A program made the position numbers and the translations under genes. 64,000 nucleotides of DNA. Origin: an uncultured Methylococcaceae bacterium. Lineage in GTDB: Bacteria; Pseudomonadota; Gammaproteobacteria; Methylococcales; Methylomonadaceae. Position 1 is the stretch's first letter, and every line of letters begins with the position of its first letter. This document shows positions 2,863 through 9,920 of the stretch, in pieces. The stretch covers positions 2,837 to 66,836 of the forward strand of contig CAIOMN010000187.1 of NCBI GenBank assembly GCA_903859415.1. The letters are read 5' to 3'. Below the pieces are notes generated by a model. The model had not been told where the DNA came from. It made no database searches and worked only from the letters and a program-made list of their open reading frames with translations.

Positions 2863-4068
2863 CTACATTGTAGGGAGTAGTTTCTCAAACAACTCAGAGA
2901 GCTTCTGTTTTAAATGAGCTTCTGATGATAATATTTTCTGTACCTCTGCCATATTTGATCGATTTGCATGTGCTAAAGAATTACGAATATTGCTCAACAA
3001 TTTATAATCAGGCCACTTTATCGGGTCTGCGATACTTTTAAGGTTCGTTCTTATTTCATCACGCAACTCATAATTCTCTGGATCAGCATGCGGTGTTTTT
3101 TGTTTGAGATGATAAGTGATTAAAGCCTCGTACCCCATAGCAGCAGCCCTGACATAATCACTCCGCTGTAAATAAAACAATGCTTTCTCACGTTGCCGTA
3201 AATAAATATTGTCCTGATTAACCCAACTGATACGCTCTCTTAAACTGTCCTGAAACAAGCTGGCAATGCCCGGCAATTCACCGGCTGTATTTGTTGCAAA
3301 ATTGCGTAATGGCTTACGTGCCTGAGTTACGCTTAAGGTATTTTCATAAAAAGAAGCTGTTTTTAATAAGCCTGCCGTGTTGGGTGATAGTCCTTCTTGT
3401 ATTAACAGCTCACTAAAGGGCGCTATGTCACCCGTTTTATCAAAACCATGTAACGCCGTAATCCAGTCAGCAATCTTTAGCAAACCATCCAGTCTCATCA
3501 CAGGGGTAAGGGGCTTATCATCTTTGCTTGTACGATCCATCGCGCCATAATATATACCTTTTATGTCTACTTTTTTGGCAGTCTGTAAATACATCGCACT
3601 TAATAAGCCCAGCATGGGTAAGTGTCTTAAACCATGCGTTAAATCCAGCGATACCTGATCACCGATACCAATGTCTTTCGCCATGATTTTTAATATTTCT
3701 ACTTGCGTTGAGGTACTATCACCGTAAGGTATCAGGTTTAAGTGGCAATCAACACCCAAGCGCTCTTTTAATAACGCTTCACAGGCGGTTAATTGCGCTT
3801 GTGTAACCTGATCACGTTCAACGGCATCCATTAATTCTAACTTTTGCTCTTCATAGTCTTGAGCACTAGCAAAACTGTCAAATAGCACATCCCACATACT
3901 ACCCGACGTCCCTAACAAGACCAGTCGGTCAGGCTTTATAACATTGTTAAGACCCAGTGAGAAAAACTGAGTCGTTTCAATGTATCCATCAAAATCATAA
4001 TTGGCTGTGCTGTAACAGCCATCTCTTTTTTGTGATTTTCCTAAAAAACCGATCAACGTATGAGTCAT
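2863..4068 (-). CDS. csx1: Csx1-family CARF-HEPN effector (DxTHG-motif CRISPR-associated protein, TM1812-like)
   Basis: 401-aa ORF. N-terminal LIGFLGKS... CARF-like start, DxTHG motif (SLDLTHGLRHLP), and C-terminal HEPN R-x4-H motif (NIRNSLAHANR). Sits 27 nt upstream of cmr1. Confidence 0.8.
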   Translation of the reverse strand: MTHTLIGFLGKSQKRDGCYSTANYDFDGYIETTQFFSLGLNNVIKPDRLVLLGTSGSMWDVLFDSFASAQDYEEQKLELMDAVERDQVTQAQLTACEALLKERLGVDCHLNLIPYGDSTSTQVEILKIMAKDIGIGDQVSLDLTHGLRHLPMLGLLSAMYLQTAKKVDIKGIYYGAMDRTSKDDKPLTPVMRLDGLLKIADWITALHGFDKTGDIAPFSELLIQEGLSPNTAGLLKTASFYENTLSVTQARKPLRNFATNTAGELPGIASLFQDSLRERISWVNQDNIYLRQREKALFYLQRSDYVRAAAMGYEALITYHLKQKTPHADPENYELRDEIRTNLKSIADPIKWPDYKLLSNIRNSLAHANRSNMAEVQKILSSEAHLKQKLSELFEKLLPTM

Positions 4069-4166
4069 ATTATTTCCGCTCCGGTACTCACTTCATAGGT
4101 TCCGGTGATTTGTTTTGAGAGATCATGGTAGATTTTTCCCGCTGATATTGCTTTTTCAATAGTCAT
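4065..4166 (-). CDS. 33-codon mini-ORF (MTIEKAISAGKIYHDLSKQITGTYEVSTGAEII) overlapping the csx1 start by ATGA; possible leader peptide or small protein
   Basis: Hand-read. The ATG at 4166-4164 is preceded by AAAGGA about 8 nt upstream. The stop TGA at 4067-4065 overlaps the csx1 ATG at 4068-4066. Its first three codons (MTI) and RBS belong to the duplicated cassette. No homology evidence. Confidence 0.3.
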   Translation of the reverse strand: MTIEKAISAGKIYHDLSKQITGTYEVSTGAEII

Positions 4167-4242
4167 TGCTAAATTCCTTTAATTTAAAAAAATGTATTAA
4201 ATCACAACTGATACACTCAAAATAGGCATACAAATTTGTTTG
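4158..4242 (-). promoter_or_regulatory. Promoter/operator cassette copy 1 (upstream of mini-ORF, csx1, cmr1, cmr2)
   Basis: About 85 bp, roughly 85 percent identical by eye to 5846-5931. Contains the palindrome ACAAATTTGT (4230-4239, extended ACAAATTTGTTTG), a possible sigma70 promoter on the minus strand (TTTTGA-17 nt-TAATAC), an AAAGGA RBS and an ATG. Confidence 0.5.
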
Positions 4243-4341
4243 TTTGGGTAAAGGCTGAAAATGGAATAATCACAGTCATTCAGAATAGAGCGATGCGCAT
4301 CACTATCGTTCAGCACATCCTATAGTTGTGATTATGACTAA

Positions 4342-5457
4342 CTAAATATACGTTATTTGTTCCTTTCGTAAATTCGTGGCATACAGCAAATAGTTGTTCT
4401 TGCCTGTACTTGCTATTTGGTAAGCACGAGCAAGGTTCTCCCCTAATGCATCGGCTAACTTAGAATTAATTCGCGATATTTTTTCAGAAAAAAAGTTGCT
4501 ATCCATCCCCCGTTGCAAAGCAGCAACTGTTTTAGCACCATCACCTTTCTTCCCTAAAATCTGCCTCCAAAGCACTAAGAACTGTTCACCATAGTCTGCA
4601 TTGGCTTCCATATTGGGTTTGTAAAGTACGCTTTCTGATAACACGGTTTGCTCAATCATCCAACAATAAAAAACAAAATAGATATTTGTTAAAGGCACCT
4701 CAACACCATTAGCCATCAGTTTTTTAGCGGTCTTATCAATAATCAGTTCAGGCGGAAGTTCAGCTTTTCTGGCTAAATTAATGGTTTCTAAAAACCCCGC
4801 CTTTCCATCTAATAATTTTTTCGGGATATCGTTTCTTAAGCGCACAAACGGAATTTCGGCCAGTGAAATTTCCGCAAGCTGTGTATCAAGCGGTCTGTTA
4901 TCGCGGGTATAAATCACTTTACTGTTTTTACTTGGATAATAAAACTCAGGATGGCCTTCATAGCCTTCAGATACCAGTACATGAGAGAGCCTGTCTTGGG
5001 TTCTGCCAAACAAAGAAAGTGCATAACCCAAATAATACCCCATGGTTTTGCGCCCCCCGGCTATCGACACATGAATCGCTGCGTCTTCTTCTTGCGTCAA
5101 CCCACTGACGACCTGAGTGATATAATCGGCTGCCGCTTCATTCTGCTCTGGACTTCTTATATCATCCAGAAGATCACCGTGATGATCAGCAATCACATGA
5201 ATATGGTGTTCATTAAACTGAATGGTCGGCATTTGGTATTCTTTACAGAAGGCCAGGAACTTACCGCTATCTAGATGCAACAAATCAAGCTTAGCCCGAT
5301 GCGCCCCTTCAATGGTAGATATTAAATGAACTTCGGTCGGAATAAAGGGCGTCTCAGACGCAATCGTTAGACCATACAGGGTTTCAGTGAGTATTTGCGG
5401 CGATAAGCCACTGACAGCAAGCAGGATTCTTTTTTTATATTCGTGTGGTTGTTTCAT
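4342..5457 (-). CDS. NE0113-family CRISPR-associated CARF-domain protein with a possible C-terminal winged-helix-like region
   Basis: 371-aa ORF. N-terminus KRILLAVSGLSPQILTETLYGL and SIAGGRKTMGYYLG resemble the Cas_NE0113 / CARF Rossmann-like core. Located in a cas operon. The C-terminal third has no nuclease motif I can recognise. Confidence 0.7.
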   Translation of the reverse strand: MKQPHEYKKRILLAVSGLSPQILTETLYGLTIASETPFIPTEVHLISTIEGAHRAKLDLLHLDSGKFLAFCKEYQMPTIQFNEHHIHVIADHHGDLLDDIRSPEQNEAAADYITQVVSGLTQEEDAAIHVSIAGGRKTMGYYLGYALSLFGRTQDRLSHVLVSEGYEGHPEFYYPSKNSKVIYTRDNRPLDTQLAEISLAEIPFVRLRNDIPKKLLDGKAGFLETINLARKAELPPELIIDKTAKKLMANGVEVPLTNIYFVFYCWMIEQTVLSESVLYKPNMEANADYGEQFLVLWRQILGKKGDGAKTVAALQRGMDSNFFSEKISRINSKLADALGENLARAYQIASTGKNNYLLYATNLRKEQITYI

Positions 5458-5498: not shown

Positions 5499-5819
5499 TT
5501 ATGTCAATCGTGTCAATAATGCTAACTCAAAAGGCACGTGCATCATTTCTTGATCGTTTAATACCTTACCCTCGGGTAAGCGCTCTAATAAACGCAGAAT
5601 TAATGCTTTATCTCCAGCCTTCATAGTGACATGAATACGATTAATCTGAATATCCAGAGCCAATAGTTTAGCCAATAAATCCGCGCTAGCCGAATGACCA
5701 ATAGCTGAAATAAAGTGATCGCCCAAAACCTCTCTTGCCTGTTCTATCGAGAGTGGCCCTTCAAATCTCCAGTCCCCATAACTCGTTAAAACAGGCGTAT
5801 TAATAATGTATATTGTCAT
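5499..5819 (-). CDS. DUF1874-like protein (AcrIII-1 / Crn2, possibly Csx16 branch): candidate cyclic-oligoadenylate ring nuclease
   Basis: 106-aa ORF. Size and motif layout match my recollection of DUF1874: MTIYIINTPVLT..., SAIGHSASADLL with the conserved GH, INR, and RLLERLPEGKVL. It is the first gene of the NE0113 transcription unit in a type III locus. Confidence 0.6.
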   Translation of the reverse strand: MTIYIINTPVLTSYGDWRFEGPLSIEQAREVLGDHFISAIGHSASADLLAKLLALDIQINRIHVTMKAGDKALILRLLERLPEGKVLNDQEMMHVPFELALLTRLT

Positions 5820-5845
5820 AATTTACTCTTGCACAGACTTTTTAA

Positions 5846-5931
5846 AATAGTCATCGCTAAATACCTTTAATTTAAAAAACAAGCATTACATCACAACTGA
5901 TACACCAGCAATAGGCATACAAATTTGTTTG
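5846..5931 (-). promoter_or_regulatory. Promoter/operator cassette copy 2 (upstream of 12-codon mini-ORF, DUF1874 gene, NE0113 gene)
   Basis: Paralog of 4158-4242. Palindrome ACAAATTTGT at 5919-5928; candidate promoter TTGCTG-17 nt-TAATGC on the minus strand. The ATG at 5854-5852 opens a 12-codon ORF (MTILKSLCKSKL) whose TGA (5818-5816) overlaps the ATG of the DUF1874 gene. Confidence 0.5.
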
Positions 5932-5993: not shown

Positions 5994-6007
5994 AACAAAT
6001 TTGTTTG
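5994..6007. promoter_or_regulatory. Third copy of the AACAAATTTGTT(TG) palindromic operator-like motif
   Basis: AACAAATTTGTT is a perfect 12-bp palindrome at 5994-6005. It shares ACAAATTTGTTTG with the sites at 4230-4242 and 5919-5931. Confidence 0.4.
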
Positions 6008-6112
6008 TTCTGTGGAAGATATGCAAAGCGAACGGATCTGAATAATTACAAAAAAATGTTGGATGATGTAAACAAGATTGAGTTAATAGTAGACCTATAC
6101 CTAACCACAGCT

Positions 6113-6493
6113 AACGAACACTAGTTTGCTCTAAACCCTAACAGGTATGCACTCAGAGGAAAGACGTCCAGAATGGACGAGTCAATGTTTCGAGTAAACA
6201 AGTATTAGTTTGCAACAAACAAGGTCTTGTTTGCTCTAAACAGGGTTCCTTTTACTACAAACAAGACCTAGAACGCCCATTTTCTGGCTTACTGATGACC
6301 TTGCATCCAGTCGATAACTCTAAAATGATCTCTCCTATGAGTAAACAAGGTCTTGTTTACTCTAAAAGTGATCTTGTTTGCGACAAGAAGAACCTTTTCT
6401 GTCTTAAACAAGATCTTGTTTGTTACAGAAAGGGGCTTGTTTGCCATAAAAGAGTCCTTGTTTACGCCATTCTTACCCCATCTTAAGACAGTT
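6113..6493. repeat. Array of AAACAAG/CTTGTTT half-sites: perfect 16-bp palindromes plus a phased 21-bp degenerate tandem repeat
   Basis: Perfect palindromes AAACAAG-NN-CTTGTTT at 6217-6232, 6343-6358 and 6406-6421. Six contiguous 21-bp units lie at 6347-6472 (consensus aaGnTCTTGTTTgCnnnAAAa) and three more at 6200-6262. A degenerate copy lies at 6113-6136. Confidence 0.75.
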
Positions 6494-6694
6494 CAAACTC
6501 TAAAAAGACCCTTAAAGTACCGGTTAAAATCTAACACTAAATATATTTCAAAAATAATCCATTTATATCGTACTTTAAATTTATAAAGGGCTATACTGGT
6601 TTGCGTAGCACTTAGAATCATCTATTTGTTACGAGGGGATTGAATAGGATTTCGATACATTACGCCTGTTTTTCAGGCAATCGCAGAGGGATTT

Positions 6695-7327
6695 ATGAAA
6701 ACACAAAAAGCACTCATCAGTTTCAGTGACGTTAAAGATAATGATTTAGTCAACGATGCACAAAAAATTGTTGATAAAATGACCAACAATCTTAACTACA
6801 CTGCTCCTCAACCCGATCTATCCACCGTTCAAGGTGCGATACTCGCTTACTCCGCCGCCTTAGTTAAATGCAAAGATGGCAATAAAGAAGATACGGCTAA
6901 CAAGAACGCCCTGCGTTTAGTGCTAGAAAATGCACTGTCTGCACTCGGCACCTATGTCAATTTGACTGCTGCATCTGATCTGGTTAAATTAGACAGTTCA
7001 GGCTTTCCACTCTCAAAAACACCTCAGGCTGTTGGTATTTTAGAGGCACCGACTTTAAACGTGCAATATGGGAATAATCCAGGCGAGATGGGCGTTGAAA
7101 TTGGCGTAGTAACCAATGCCAATGAATATCTCTTGCTGTTTTCGCCCTCTCCTGCACCGGTAAATGATGCCGAGTGGCGCAGTAAATTATTTTCAAAAAC
7201 CAAGGCTACAATCACTGGTTTAACCAGCGGAATTAAATATATTTTTAAAGTCGCCGCTACCAGTTCCGAAGCCAACAAAATGGGCACCTATAACTTTTCC
7301 AACCCAGTTGAAAAATTAGTCCCATAG
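6695..7327 (+). CDS. Hypothetical protein with helical N-terminal half and fibronectin-type-III-like C-terminal domain
   Basis: 210-aa ORF. The C-terminal segment TITGLTSGIKYIFKVAATS is typical of an FN3 F-G strand region. No signal peptide seen. Confidence 0.55.
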   Translation: MKTQKALISFSDVKDNDLVNDAQKIVDKMTNNLNYTAPQPDLSTVQGAILAYSAALVKCKDGNKEDTANKNALRLVLENALSALGTYVNLTAASDLVKLDSSGFPLSKTPQAVGILEAPTLNVQYGNNPGEMGVEIGVVTNANEYLLLFSPSPAPVNDAEWRSKLFSKTKATITGLTSGIKYIFKVAATSSEANKMGTYNFSNPVEKLVP

Positions 7328-7432
7328 CGTTAAACAGCAGGAGCCTTTGTTTAAAAGTTTAAGTTGTTTTTAGATAAGGGCTCTTACCGTTAAAAATAGA
7401 TTCCCCCCCAATCCTTAAGTTCTTAATTTTTC

Positions 7433-9493
7433 TTAGCGCTCCTCAACTAAATGGCTGAGACTATACGGAGTTTCTGTTAACGGCGGTACTGCTTTTCCTT
7501 GCAGGTGTCGAAGACTGACCCGTAACATATCAAAAACAATAATCCAGAGTAAACTTACAAAGCTGATTGTAATCCAGGCATCCAGTTGCAGGTTAAAGAT
7601 TAATTGTGGGGCAATAGCGGCTTTAGCGGGGGGTAACAGGCCATTAGCAAACTTGTCAGCCAAATCGTTAGCCGCAGAAAAGAACCCCAGGCGAATATCA
7701 TCGCTACAGACCTTTTGCCAAGCGGCTGTGGAGGTAATAGTCACTAGCCAGAATAAAGGGATACCGGTTATCCAGGCATACTTAAGTTTGTCAGATTTGA
7801 CTAAAATGCCGGTTGCAACCGATAAAGCGATAGCCGCTAACATTTGATTCGCGATACCAAAGAGTGGCCATAAAATATTCACACCGCCATTAGGATCAAT
7901 GACGCCAATGTATAAAAAATAACCCCAGCCTGCGACCACCACAAAACTGGTGAAAATGACGGAGGGAGTCCAAGAGGTTTCAGCCATTTTAGGCCAGACA
8001 TTGCCGAGTATATCCTGAAGCATAAAACGTCCAACGCGGGTGCCTGCATCCAGTGTCGTCAGGATAAAAACCGCCTCAAACATAATAGCGAAGTGATACC
8101 AAATCGCCAATAAGCCTTCTCCAAACGCACTACCAAAAATACTCGCCATACCGACTGCCAGTGAAGGTGCGCCCCCTGTACGAGCGAACAGGGTAGTTTC
8201 ACCCATTTGATGCGCTAACGTTTGCATCTGTTCGACAGTCACCGGAAAACCCCAGGACGCTATTTTGGCAACAGCATCAACGGCCTCTGCACCGACGATA
8301 CCGGCGGGGCTGTTAATCGCAAAAAACACACCCGGATCAAGTACGGTCGCTGCAATCATTGCCATGATGGCAACAAAGGATTCCAGGAGCATGCCACCAT
8401 AGCCTATCATGCAGATATCTTCTTCATTACTGAGGAGTTTGGGTGTCGTGCCTGAAGCAACCAGGGAGTGGAAGCCGGATATAGCGCCACAAGCAATGGT
8501 GATAAAGACAAACGGAAATAATTTACCGCTGAAAATAGGCCCTGTGCCATCAATAAACTGAGTGATGGCCGGCATTTTTATATTAGGTTGCAACAGGATA
8601 ATGGCGATGGCTAACAAAGTAATGGTGCCAATCTTCATGTAGGTGGATAAATAATCGCGAGGCGCTAATAATAACCAAACGGGTAAAATGGCGGCCGCAA
8701 AGCCATAAGCCATCACGTACCAGGCTAGCGTGAGTCCTTCCTGATCAAACAGTATTCGTAGAGTCTCATGTCCGTCAATAAAGCGCCCGCCGACAACGGA
8801 CAGCAATAATAAGGTTACGCCAATGATCGAGGCTTCCAGTACTTGGCCTGGACGGATGTAGCGCATGTAAACGCCGATTATCATGGCAATAGGAATAGTC
8901 GCAGAAACTGTAAACGTGGCCCAAGGGCTGTGTTTCATGGCATTCACCACCACCAGTCCCAGTACGGCAATGAGAATAATCATGATGGCAAAGGTGGCGG
9001 TTAAGGCAGCTGTTCCACCTAGGGGGCCTAGTTCATCGCGTGCCATTTGTCCCAGGCTTTTGGCATCCCGTCGGGTCGATAAAAATAAAGTCACCATGTC
9101 TTGTACGCAGCCACCGATGACTGCGCCGAATAAGATCCAAAGCGTTCCGGGTAAATAGCCAAATTGTGCGGCCAGTGTGGGGCCTATTAAGGGGCCAGGT
9201 CCTGCGATAGCTGCAAAATGATGTCCGAACACAATCCATTTGTTGGTGGGTACAAAATCACGGCCATTATCCAGACGCTCTGCGGGCGTTGCTCGGGTTT
9301 TATCAACGATTAAGACGGTGGAGGCGATCCATAATGCATAAAAGCGATAGCCAATGGCGTAGATGCAAAGTGCAGCGACGATAAGCCAGAGCGCATTGAT
9401 CGGTTCGCCTCGATTAATTGCGATACCGCCCACTGCTAAAGCACCTATTAAGGTGATACATGGCCAAAGGCATTTTTGTAGGATCTTATTCAT
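7433..9493 (-). CDS. cstA: Carbon starvation protein A family transporter
   Basis: 686-aa polytopic membrane protein. Its N-terminus and length are typical of CstA (GYRFYALWIA..., FGHHFAAIAGPGPLIGP). Confidence 0.9.
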   Translation of the reverse strand: MNKILQKCLWPCITLIGALAVGGIAINRGEPINALWLIVAALCIYAIGYRFYALWIASTVLIVDKTRATPAERLDNGRDFVPTNKWIVFGHHFAAIAGPGPLIGPTLAAQFGYLPGTLWILFGAVIGGCVQDMVTLFLSTRRDAKSLGQMARDELGPLGGTAALTATFAIMIILIAVLGLVVVNAMKHSPWATFTVSATIPIAMIIGVYMRYIRPGQVLEASIIGVTLLLLSVVGGRFIDGHETLRILFDQEGLTLAWYVMAYGFAAAILPVWLLLAPRDYLSTYMKIGTITLLAIAIILLQPNIKMPAITQFIDGTGPIFSGKLFPFVFITIACGAISGFHSLVASGTTPKLLSNEEDICMIGYGGMLLESFVAIMAMIAATVLDPGVFFAINSPAGIVGAEAVDAVAKIASWGFPVTVEQMQTLAHQMGETTLFARTGGAPSLAVGMASIFGSAFGEGLLAIWYHFAIMFEAVFILTTLDAGTRVGRFMLQDILGNVWPKMAETSWTPSVIFTSFVVVAGWGYFLYIGVIDPNGGVNILWPLFGIANQMLAAIALSVATGILVKSDKLKYAWITGIPLFWLVTITSTAAWQKVCSDDIRLGFFSAANDLADKFANGLLPPAKAAIAPQLIFNLQLDAWITISFVSLLWIIVFDMLRVSLRHLQGKAVPPLTETPYSLSHLVEER

Positions 9494-9497
9494 AGAA

Positions 9498-9920
9498 TTA
9501 GTCGTTTAATGAAGTGAGTTGTGCTTTTACGCGCGTTAGAGTGGCGATGAGTTGTTCATCTGTATAAGGGATAGAGTCAAACTTCCCCCACACCGGAGCA
9601 GGCCAGGCTCTATCAGTTTGATATCGAACTACATGATGCAGGTGTAGTTGGGGCACCAGGTTTCCTATTGCAGCAATATTCATTTTATCGGCTGAGAAGA
9701 GTGTCGCTAAATTTTTAGCAAGGTAATTTGATTCTTCTGTTAGCATAAGACGCTCTGTCCTGTTGAGCTGATAAATTTCGGTAATATCGGCTAGTTCAGG
9801 AACCAGGATAAACCAGGGATACTGGCTATCGTTCATCATGAGTAACTGACATAGGTCAAATTTACCTAGGGTTATACAATCTTGTTGTAAGCGCGGATGT
9901 AATTGAAATAATGTGGTCAT
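9498..9920 (-). CDS. HIT (histidine triad) family protein
   Basis: 140 aa with a histidine-triad-like PQLHLHHVV. Ends 4 nt upstream of cstA, so likely co-transcribed. Confidence 0.75.
   Translation of the reverse strand: MTTLFQLHPRLQQDCITLGKFDLCQLLMMNDSQYPWFILVPELADITEIYQLNRTERLMLTEESNYLAKNLATLFSADKMNIAAIGNLVPQLHLHHVVRYQTDRAWPAPVWGKFDSIPYTDEQLIATLTRVKAQLTSLND

Follow-up and report, generated by a model that had tools for sequence, protein, structure and literature searches.

Positions 6070 to 6489 of a 64-kb stretch of DNA from an uncultured, Methylobacter-like Methylococcaceae bacterium (the window, to which all coordinates refer unless a related locus is named) comprise a non-coding array of approximately 20 head-to-tail units of 21 bp that share a single register and have the consensus AAACAAGGTCTTGTTTGCTCT. 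Copies of this array differ by base substitutions and by the gain or loss of whole units, with no small insertions or deletions (indels), and recur in several flank contexts. Arrays with the same 21-bp period and lineage-specific half-sites also lie upstream of a gene for a 210-amino-acid (aa) FN3-domain protein in every lineage examined. Our best reading is that the array is tied to this FN3 gene family and to flexible defence regions, and not specifically to cas operators or to the NE0113-family CARF protein encoded nearby. We tentatively explain it as a cis-acting, phase-dependent lattice for the cooperative binding of a putative sequence-specific protein, an explanation that we favour while placing it somewhat short of probable. 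In what follows, L-numbers denote the related metagenome loci used for comparison, which are contigs of ENA and JGI metagenome assemblies in which chimeric joins at a repeat are possible.

Array architecture and register

The array spans 420 bp within the 875-bp divergent gap between crn2 and the 210-aa gene, an intergenic length that is unchanged across many strains. Its unit can be written AAACAAG-GT-CTTGTTT-GCTCT and consists of a 7-bp arm, a 2-bp centre, a second 7-bp arm and a 5-bp linker; no strand is assigned to the array or to any of its blocks. The call is based on a register table, on spacings that are multiples of 21 bp for all repeat families, on autocorrelation at lag 21 and on enrichment over shuffled sequence. 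The part that is homologous among copies runs from about 6086/6117 to 6486/6540. All six copies of CTTGTTT (6226, 6352, 6373, 6415, 6436 and 6457) have the same phase modulo 21, and six of the seven local copies of AAACAAG (6070, 6196, 6217, 6259, 6343 and 6406) lie in the matching phase. If uniform phases are assumed, the chance that the other 11 half-sites would match the phase of the first is approximately 3e-15. The six half-sites of each kind and the three perfect palindromes in 6070-6489 compare with means of 0.12, 0.11 and 0, respectively, in 2000 dinucleotide-preserving shuffles, and the other 63.6 kb of the window contains 4 and 8 half-sites and no palindrome. A scan of the whole window placed clustered 21-bp autocorrelation peaks (z >=3.5) in the array region only.

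An earlier note on this DNA had reported perfect 16-bp palindromes (AAACAAG-NN-CTTGTTT) starting at 6217, 6343 and 6406, and these are indeed present and are the only three in the window. The imperfect palindrome (6196-6211) and the CTTGT-N5-ACAAG element (6373-6387) that it listed were likewise recovered. Its tandem 21-bp units are real, and the claim was conservative in view of the full extent of the register. Its view of the array as iteron-like and not a CRISPR, with a geometry that matters, is supported. Copies 12-20% diverged that remain gap-free and differ in whole units are as a phase-dependent protein-binding platform would predict. The helical phasing that it named we infer from the relation 21 = 2 x 10.5 bp.

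Motif content varies along the array. The left part (6070-6195) is degenerate, with a full left arm at 6070, a right arm that matches at 6/7 positions in 6112-6132, and otherwise motif-poor sequence. Block B (6196-6279) is motif-rich and consists of four units that include the perfect palindrome at 6217-6232, a 63-bp core at 6217-6279 and a 12-bp perfect inverted repeat in which 6222-6233 pairs with 6258-6269. The following motif-poor block (6280-6342) has arm scores of at most 3/7; its 63 bp, equal to three unit lengths, hold the phase between blocks B and C and are still gap-free among copies. Block C (6343-6468) is again motif-rich and contains six units, with perfect palindromes at 6343-6358 and 6406-6421. 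The right arm CTTGTTT is perfect in five of these six units and scores 5/7 in the unit at 6385, and in the units other than the palindromes only the right arm is present, giving direct repeats that resemble iterons. The array as a whole has the 7-2-7 palindromes, conserved arm positions and invariant spacing expected of an operator array. Beyond it lies an A+T-rich stretch (6520-6590) that is missing from some copies. A terminator-like hairpin on the minus strand (6165-6179; CGTCCATTCTGGACG followed by a T-rich tail) lies inside a motif-poor unit, and its stem is not conserved in other array copies.

Sequence change among array copies

A metagenome scan for the combined palindrome and half-site pattern returned 16 loci. 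Over a 370-bp core, the window array aligns with ten other copies without gaps at 79-88% identity, save for changes of exactly one or more 21-bp units. Such whole-unit gains or losses were seen in L156 and L154 and, in strain alignments, in L003, and include an insertion of 21 bp within block C in L003 and L156. Across seven non-redundant copies, at least 153 substitution events and 0 small indels were counted, where 8-15 small indels would be expected from adjacent non-coding DNA, which has approximately one gap per 14 mismatches (P ~1e-4 to 1e-7). Every copy has 1-15 stops in each of the six frames; this rules out a coding heptad repeat or a pseudogene, and the constraint on indels is therefore not a coding one. 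As base changes are tolerated and phase shifts are not, these alignments point to a function at the DNA level that depends on helical register, and thus to selection on the helical phase of the array.

Within the unit, the most conserved positions in eight copies are TGTTT (12-16) and AAA (1-3), and the least conserved are linker positions 17 and 19 and arm position 5. The 63-bp core in block B is 95-98% conserved among copies that are otherwise 80-90% identical. The two arms are kept nearly independently, the left being retained in 57, the right in 63 and both in 29 of 162 units. A phased lattice of half-sites is thus a more accurate description of the array than a series of palindromes.

Association with the FN3 gene family

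The 210-aa gene to the right of the array (6695-7327, plus strand) encodes an N-terminal three-helix bundle and a C-terminal FN3 domain. Its 62 homologues, at 44-95% identity, were found in Methylococcales-like sequences only; where named, they are assigned to Methylobacter or Methylococcales, with one labelled Lentisphaerota, and their chromosomal contexts are unrelated. The protein matched no Pfam, PHROG or PADLOC family and had no relatives in IMG/VR. An AlphaFold2 model with a predicted local distance difference test (pLDDT) score of 90.6 represents it as the helix bundle plus FN3, and Foldseek searches with this model returned FN3 matches only (PDB, BFVD).

Autocorrelation detected a 21-bp-periodic array in the gene-free region upstream of the homologue in 9/9 lineages examined, and no other gene recurs beside such arrays across lineages. 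We propose the FN3 gene as the ancestral and most constant partner of these arrays. The period is kept in these arrays, and the half-site differs by lineage. The arrays of L129 and L139 (AAAGAAG-NN-CTTCTTT-GCTAT) have the architecture of the window array with one symmetric base pair swapped in both arms, and retain its period, centre (GT) and linker. This symmetric change between sister lineages would fit co-evolution with a dimeric reader. The L136 array is a near-perfect series of AAAGTTGTTTTTTCAACAAGA, that of L137 has the motif TTCTAGAAAGAAAGTATAAAT, and those of L132, L128, L238 and L240 have other motifs, all with a period of 21 bp. No long open reading frame (ORF) spans any of the arrays of these other lineages. 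A 277-aa 'long' homologue (P0058) is a gene call extended too far, into its own array.

Just 5' of the ribosome-binding site of the 210-aa gene lies a small plus-strand hairpin (6664-6678, GCCTG-TTTTT-CAGGC), followed by a conserved AAGG(C/T)AGA. An alignment of L129, L132, L128 and L139 shows compensatory changes in its stem (GCCTG/CAGGC versus GCTCG/CGAGC), and its fold is not significant alone (z = -1.3). As part of the leader, it may affect the stability or translation of the mRNA.

Several other features were noted at these loci. A PEP-CTERM protein gene is divergent from the array in L129 (7690-8313) and L132 (8071-8883), and within the L132 gene a stretch of coding sequence (8548-8821) also has a 21-bp period. 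An IS200-like Y1 transposase gene lies directly upstream of the L139 array (4235-4765), and in Methylobacter sp. S3L5C (L128, 10527-12225) the FN3 gene is truncated by DDE transposases. A gene for a 524-aa AAA_33/zeta-like protein, related to the zeta gene of L143, follows the FN3 gene in L129 and L240.

Copies without the FN3 gene

Without the 210-aa gene, the window-type array (~6090-6490) is found again, 80-90% identical, in no fewer than six further flank contexts. These may belong to one genome, as paralogues, or to several co-occurring relatives with a single copy each. Many contigs from the strain of the window itself stop within the array, as would be expected under both possibilities. 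The copy in L141 and L149 is flanked by a NACHT/AAA ATPase gene and tex, and the copy in L143, also beside tex, by a zeta-toxin pair and type I restriction-modification (R-M) genes. GmrSD-like and GNAT genes flank the copy in L147 and L151, and AbiLi and DUF3226 genes flank that in L142, beside nitroreductase/COX15. Two GmrSD/HEC-06-like genes flank the more divergent array of L148 and L155, which retains the half-site and the period though its sequence aligns unit by unit only. In L145 and L150 cas2 ends inside the array, with EF-P alongside, and in L156 the flanks are a truncated NE0113 gene and, after it, an efflux pump. L146 and L154 correspond to the window locus, but a deletion has joined the array to codon 34 of the 210-aa gene; here the array outlasts loss of this gene.

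No small conserved ORF that could encode a binder was found in the 300-bp extension common to the tex-locus copies. The genes to the left of the L143 array were considered as NE0113 or Crn2 homologues and rejected for lack of homology. Toxin-antitoxin pairs flank this tex-locus array in L143, comprising a HigB/HigA-like pair (662-1239) and a zeta-toxin/AAA_33 gene that is preceded by a 68-aa gene (4233-5008). A contig scan for CTTGTTT-N14-CTTGTTT-N14-CTTGTTT proved too loose and was set aside, as its matches (at least 119) were unrelated near-perfect 21-bp tandem repeats without an AAACAAG partner, probably coding heptads.

A proposed phase-dependent binding lattice

If array function depends on helical register, cooperative binding of protein along one DNA face would be its simplest form. 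Approximately 20 positions spaced exactly two helical turns apart would present one 7-bp half-site in both orientations (AAACAAG/CTTGTTT). A putative sequence-specific protein, not encoded beside the array, would bind the full palindromes as dimers and then spread cooperatively, on one face of the helix, over units that carry a half-site only, to form an extended nucleoprotein complex. In the window, the divergent promoters of the crn2/type III-B cas operon and the FN3 gene would lie on either side of this complex, which could repress, insulate or otherwise organise them. Solo arrays would persist at the borders of variable defence-gene clusters.

A number of observations weigh against this explanation. 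Substitution in the array is 2-3 times faster than in adjacent non-coding DNA; between the window and L144, mismatches number 0/297 in the left flank and 27/369 in the array, and at the tex locus divergence is 9-12% in the array and 6% in the flank. Substitution at this rate is unlike simple purifying selection on binding sites, and site redundancy or gene conversion must therefore be invoked. Full palindromes make up approximately 18% of units, and neither arm is present in about a third. No candidate binder was found, and no gene for a DNA-binding protein accompanies the array consistently. A comparison of the half-site with known operators gave no match. The FN3 protein is predicted to have no DNA-binding fold and is not basic; with its three-helix bundle, FN3 matches only and lack of a family, it was rejected as the binder. 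The distance from the array to the FN3 start codon ranges from 35 to approximately 500 bp between lineages, and in L155 the array is flanked by convergent genes; there is thus no one promoter geometry that is conserved. A sigma-54 promoter or enhancer was also rejected, there being no -24/-12 match.

Alternative explanations

The array could instead be a selfish or neutral dispersed minisatellite (BOX/BIME-like) of flexible regions, serving at most as a patch of homology for recombination that reshuffles adjacent defence cassettes, and having no protein reader. This alternative would account for several flank contexts at 80-90% identity, for variable unit number, for substitution that outpaces the flanks, for ragged homology limits between copies (6086-6117 on the left, 6455-6540 on the right), for variable cargo on both sides at the tex locus and for the many metagenome contigs that end inside the array. 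The jump in identity at the array border in the comparison with L144 suggests conversion or recombination. Neutral DNA should, however, gain small indels, of which there are none among the substitution events counted, and should not hold a period of exactly 21 bp in all nine FN3-linked lineages despite differing sequences, nor conserve half-site positions above linkers. The copies showed neither terminal inverted repeats nor target duplications. There is one array copy in the window and none elsewhere in approximately 300 kb of related loci, so the array is not a high-copy repeat; its low copy number, ragged limits and lack of terminal inverted repeats likewise led us to reject a dispersed repeat of the miniature inverted-repeat transposable element, repetitive extragenic palindromic (REP) or BOX type. 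The array is dispersed, a possibility that the earlier note had allowed for, but its copies are located in flexible, defence-rich regions and are not genome-wide noise. On balance we consider a selfish repeat unlikely, while regarding it as the most serious competitor.

An iteron-type element is the alternative that best matches the layout, and it could be what remains of an integrated replicon, or else a decoy in the chromosome by which the initiator of an invading plasmid or phage is titrated or 'handcuffed'. Direct repeats of CTTGTTTRC every 21 bp, inverted half-sites and two spaced clusters together give the layout of a theta origin or incompatibility locus, and the A+T-rich stretch at 6520-6590 follows. 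The iterons of P1, F and pSC101 have periods of approximately 21-22 bp. The lack of a cis-encoded protein, the position among defence genes and a specificity that turns over fast between lineages with the period kept would also be accommodated. The note's suggestion of a relic replication or partition site may be right, although the searches for genes and matches gave it no support. No rep, par or relaxase gene was present within the loci read; specifically, no Rep or primase-helicase gene was found among the window neighbours (Pfam/NCBIfam) or in the gene tables of more than 20 related loci. No partition NTPase (ParA/ParM/TubZ) gene lies beside the array, the downstream gene being the single one for the FN3 protein, and a ParA-like gene in L132 is 9 kb off and unrelated to the array. 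BLAST searches with the array gave no match in 72,556 plasmids (PLSDB) or 50,697 phages (INPHARED), and no IMG/VR contig had the palindrome-plus-half-site pattern, the looser viral matches lacking the partner arm. An iteron would also leave the constant link to the FN3 gene unexplained, and we judge this alternative quite unlikely.

A chromosomal origin (oriC) was rejected for want of a DnaA-box cluster and because homologous arrays occupy other, unrelated places on chromosomes. No DnaA box (TTATCCACA, at most 1 mismatch) was found between 5800 and 6700, and four one-mismatch boxes are scattered in the first 12 kb, none of them in the array. The cumulative GC skew has its minimum at approximately 7-9 kb and gene orientation flips at 9920/10022; without a cluster of DnaA boxes, the probable cause of the skew change is the strand bias of the genes and not an origin.

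The repeats might also act at the RNA level, either in an extended 5' leader transcribed with the FN3 gene or in a separate non-coding RNA, with hairpins that bind an RNA-binding protein or act structurally. The L136 and L137 arrays end 35-45 bp before the start codon and may lie within the transcript, the leader hairpin is conserved, and the C-to-G/G-to-C arm change between lineages is compensatory. Compensated pairs numbered 88 against 63 +/- 6 in column shuffles, a weak excess in units that are related by descent. Most non-consensus units, however, have one arm altered and left unpaired; a 7-2-7 palindrome with its 2-nt loop would make a poor hairpin, and a 21-nt register over 400 nt would be unusual for RNA. 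Rfam gave no hit at gathering thresholds in the 64 kb, and the best sub-threshold match (miRNA-like, 27 bits versus a threshold of 100, E = 0.012) is a chance one. No convincing promoter lies upstream of the array, and solo copies without the FN3 gene remain gap-free. A function in RNA is thus distinctly improbable, and is conceivable for the FN3-linked copies. Tandem-repeat guide RNAs of the VIPR type were rejected, as their 5-nt YNNGG units are unrelated to the array.

A further variant, which we hold to be very improbable, makes the arrays DNA-only immune or incompatibility elements, that is, iteron mimics in defence islands that would soak up or handcuff the initiators of invaders. Their targets could be the initiator or another essential DNA-binding protein of plasmids, phage-plasmids or phages, and an arms race would drive turnover of the half-sites but leave the two-turn period in place. 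Such decoys would explain the missing cis-encoded binder, the position beside defence genes, substitution that is rapid yet never shifts the phase, and motifs that differ by lineage.

Relation to the cas genes

A complete type III-B locus lies to the left of the array and comprises crn2 (5499-5819, minus strand; DUF1874/STIV-B116-like), the gene for the NE0113-family CARF protein, a 33-aa ORF, the gene for a CARF-HEPN Csx1-like protein, and cmr1-6. To the right, the 210-aa gene is followed by cstA. The earlier note had tied the array specifically to the cas promoters and to NE0113 through a shared half-site in three operators. Sites are present at 4230, 5919 and 5995, but the sequence given for them (AAACAA-AT-TTGTTT) was merely approximate; the actual sequence is ACAAATTTGTTTG, with the left arms ATACAA at 4230, ATACAA at 5919 and TAACAA at 5995. 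The 10-bp palindrome ACAAATTTGT (ACAAA|TTTGT) is a motif separate from the array half-site, with another arm spacing, and as its only three occurrences in the 64 kb are all in cas intergenic DNA it is probably a separate cas operator. Two of the three sites lie within a duplication of approximately 92 bp (4152-4242 and 5840-5931, 87% identical; one ACAAATTTGT in each copy) in the 5' regions of the 33-aa ORF and crn2.

The specific tie was not supported, as the same array adjoins unrelated genes with no NE0113 nearby and 21-bp arrays precede every examined FN3-gene homologue, including loci without any cas genes. That the array serves as a sink or nucleation site for a cas regulator, such as an NE0113 protein that would also bind the cas-promoter operators, is the least credible alternative: the word TTGTTTG is common to the array and the three cas-promoter palindromes and the array abuts NE0113-containing loci in the window and L156, but with six-base arms the centres are 2 bp in the cas sites and 4 bp in the array, both of which one rigid dimer rarely tolerates, arrays of the same motif lie at loci without cas genes (L141, L142, L147 and L148), the FN3-gene arrays of other lineages have no cas neighbours, and DNA binding by NE0113 is unsupported (Pfam match limited to the CARF part, no PDB relative found, and an unusable single-sequence AlphaFold model with pLDDT 36).

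The array is not a CRISPR array, as it consists of contiguous 21-mers without spacers and is unrelated to the 36-nt CRISPR repeat of L144, nor is it a CRISPR leader, as it does not lie beside the L144 repeats and no CRISPR adjoins any other copy. At the orthologous locus L144 (6805-9860 and 10307-11549), approximately 45 CRISPR repeats (GTTAGAAAGTTGCCCTGATTAAGAAGGGATTAAGAC) abut a truncated cmr1 and are followed by cas1 and cas2; the junction is abrupt and may have arisen by deletion or by chimeric assembly. The 33-aa ORF (4065-4166, minus strand), which lies between the NE0113 and Csx1-like genes, is annotated as a gene in several assemblies; it starts MTI... (compare MTIYI... in crn2) and looks like a remnant of a duplicated crn2 start. 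An insertion hotspot at approximately 7328-7432, between the 210-aa gene and cstA, was evident from L002, L232 and L234-L237. Its cargo in other strains is a complete type I-F CRISPR-Cas operon (cas1, cas2-3 and csy1-4) or genes for an 85-aa protein and a PIN toxin, and in the type I-F strains the array and FN3 gene are flanked by two CRISPR-Cas systems.

Comparison with known systems and implications

Phased repeat arrays that serve as protein platforms are a known kind of element, represented by iterons, centromeres and operator arrays. The iterons and incompatibility loci of theta plasmids (P1 incC/incA, F ori2/incC, pSC101 and R6K) resemble the array in their tandem repeats of approximately two turns, inverted repeats of the same half-site, spaced clusters, high binding capacity, and lineage-specific sequence with a conserved period; the right arms of the array, as tandem direct repeats approximately two turns apart, fall within the 17-22 bp of iterons. 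In contrast to iterons, the array has no rep gene, DnaA boxes, or plasmid or phage context or match, consists of approximately 20 units in a chromosome, and recurs beside defence genes and upstream of an FN3-domain gene. Partition centromeres (F sopC, R1 parC, pSK41 parC and tubC) likewise place repeats in two blocks upstream of a gene, vary in unit number and are cooperatively bound into a superstructure; in F sopC, an inverted repeat of 7 bp is present in each of the 12 x 43 bp units. They differ in that no ParA/ParM/TubZ-type NTPase gene and no gene for a small ribbon-helix-helix or helix-turn-helix adaptor lies beside any copy of the array, and the protein encoded downstream is a helical bundle plus FN3 without a DNA-binding fold.

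Operators of oligomerising repressors (ArgR, Fur, MetJ and CcdA/CcdB) share with the array palindromes on one face, cooperative extension over weaker sites and a location between divergent promoters, and ArgR boxes share the spacing of 21 bp centre to centre. The array is ten times longer than typical operators, its motif is unmatched, its regulator is not adjacent and its solo copies have no fixed promoter geometry. BOX elements of S. pneumoniae, BIMEs/REPs of E. coli and NIMEs of Neisseria are, like the array, intergenic, multi-copy and modular, with variable unit number and an association with variable regions. They are set apart from it by its low copy number, ragged ends, strict 21-bp phase without small indels, lineage-specific half-site and constant partner gene. 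The present array differs from the known kind in being chromosomal with no linked binder, in its tie to an orphan FN3 family and in its location at the borders of defence clusters with lineage-specific half-sites. A literature search on the half-site, 21-bp repeats in defence islands, Methylobacter repeats and repeats upstream of PEP-CTERM genes found nothing relevant, and no account of arrays of this kind.

Should the array prove to be a selfish repeat, it would still be useful for locating flexible regions, and would be one cause of broken assemblies in lake metagenomes. If it is a phase-dependent binding lattice, it would represent an undescribed family of cis-elements in methanotrophs (Methylococcales) in which specificity evolves quickly while geometry stays frozen. 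The putative DNA-binding protein and the orphan FN3-domain gene would then become targets for study. The copies would mark the borders of variable anti-phage clusters (CRISPR-Cas III-B and I-F, cas2, R-M, GmrSD, AbiL and NACHT), and would provide a handle on how defence islands are organised, regulated or exchanged in these organisms.

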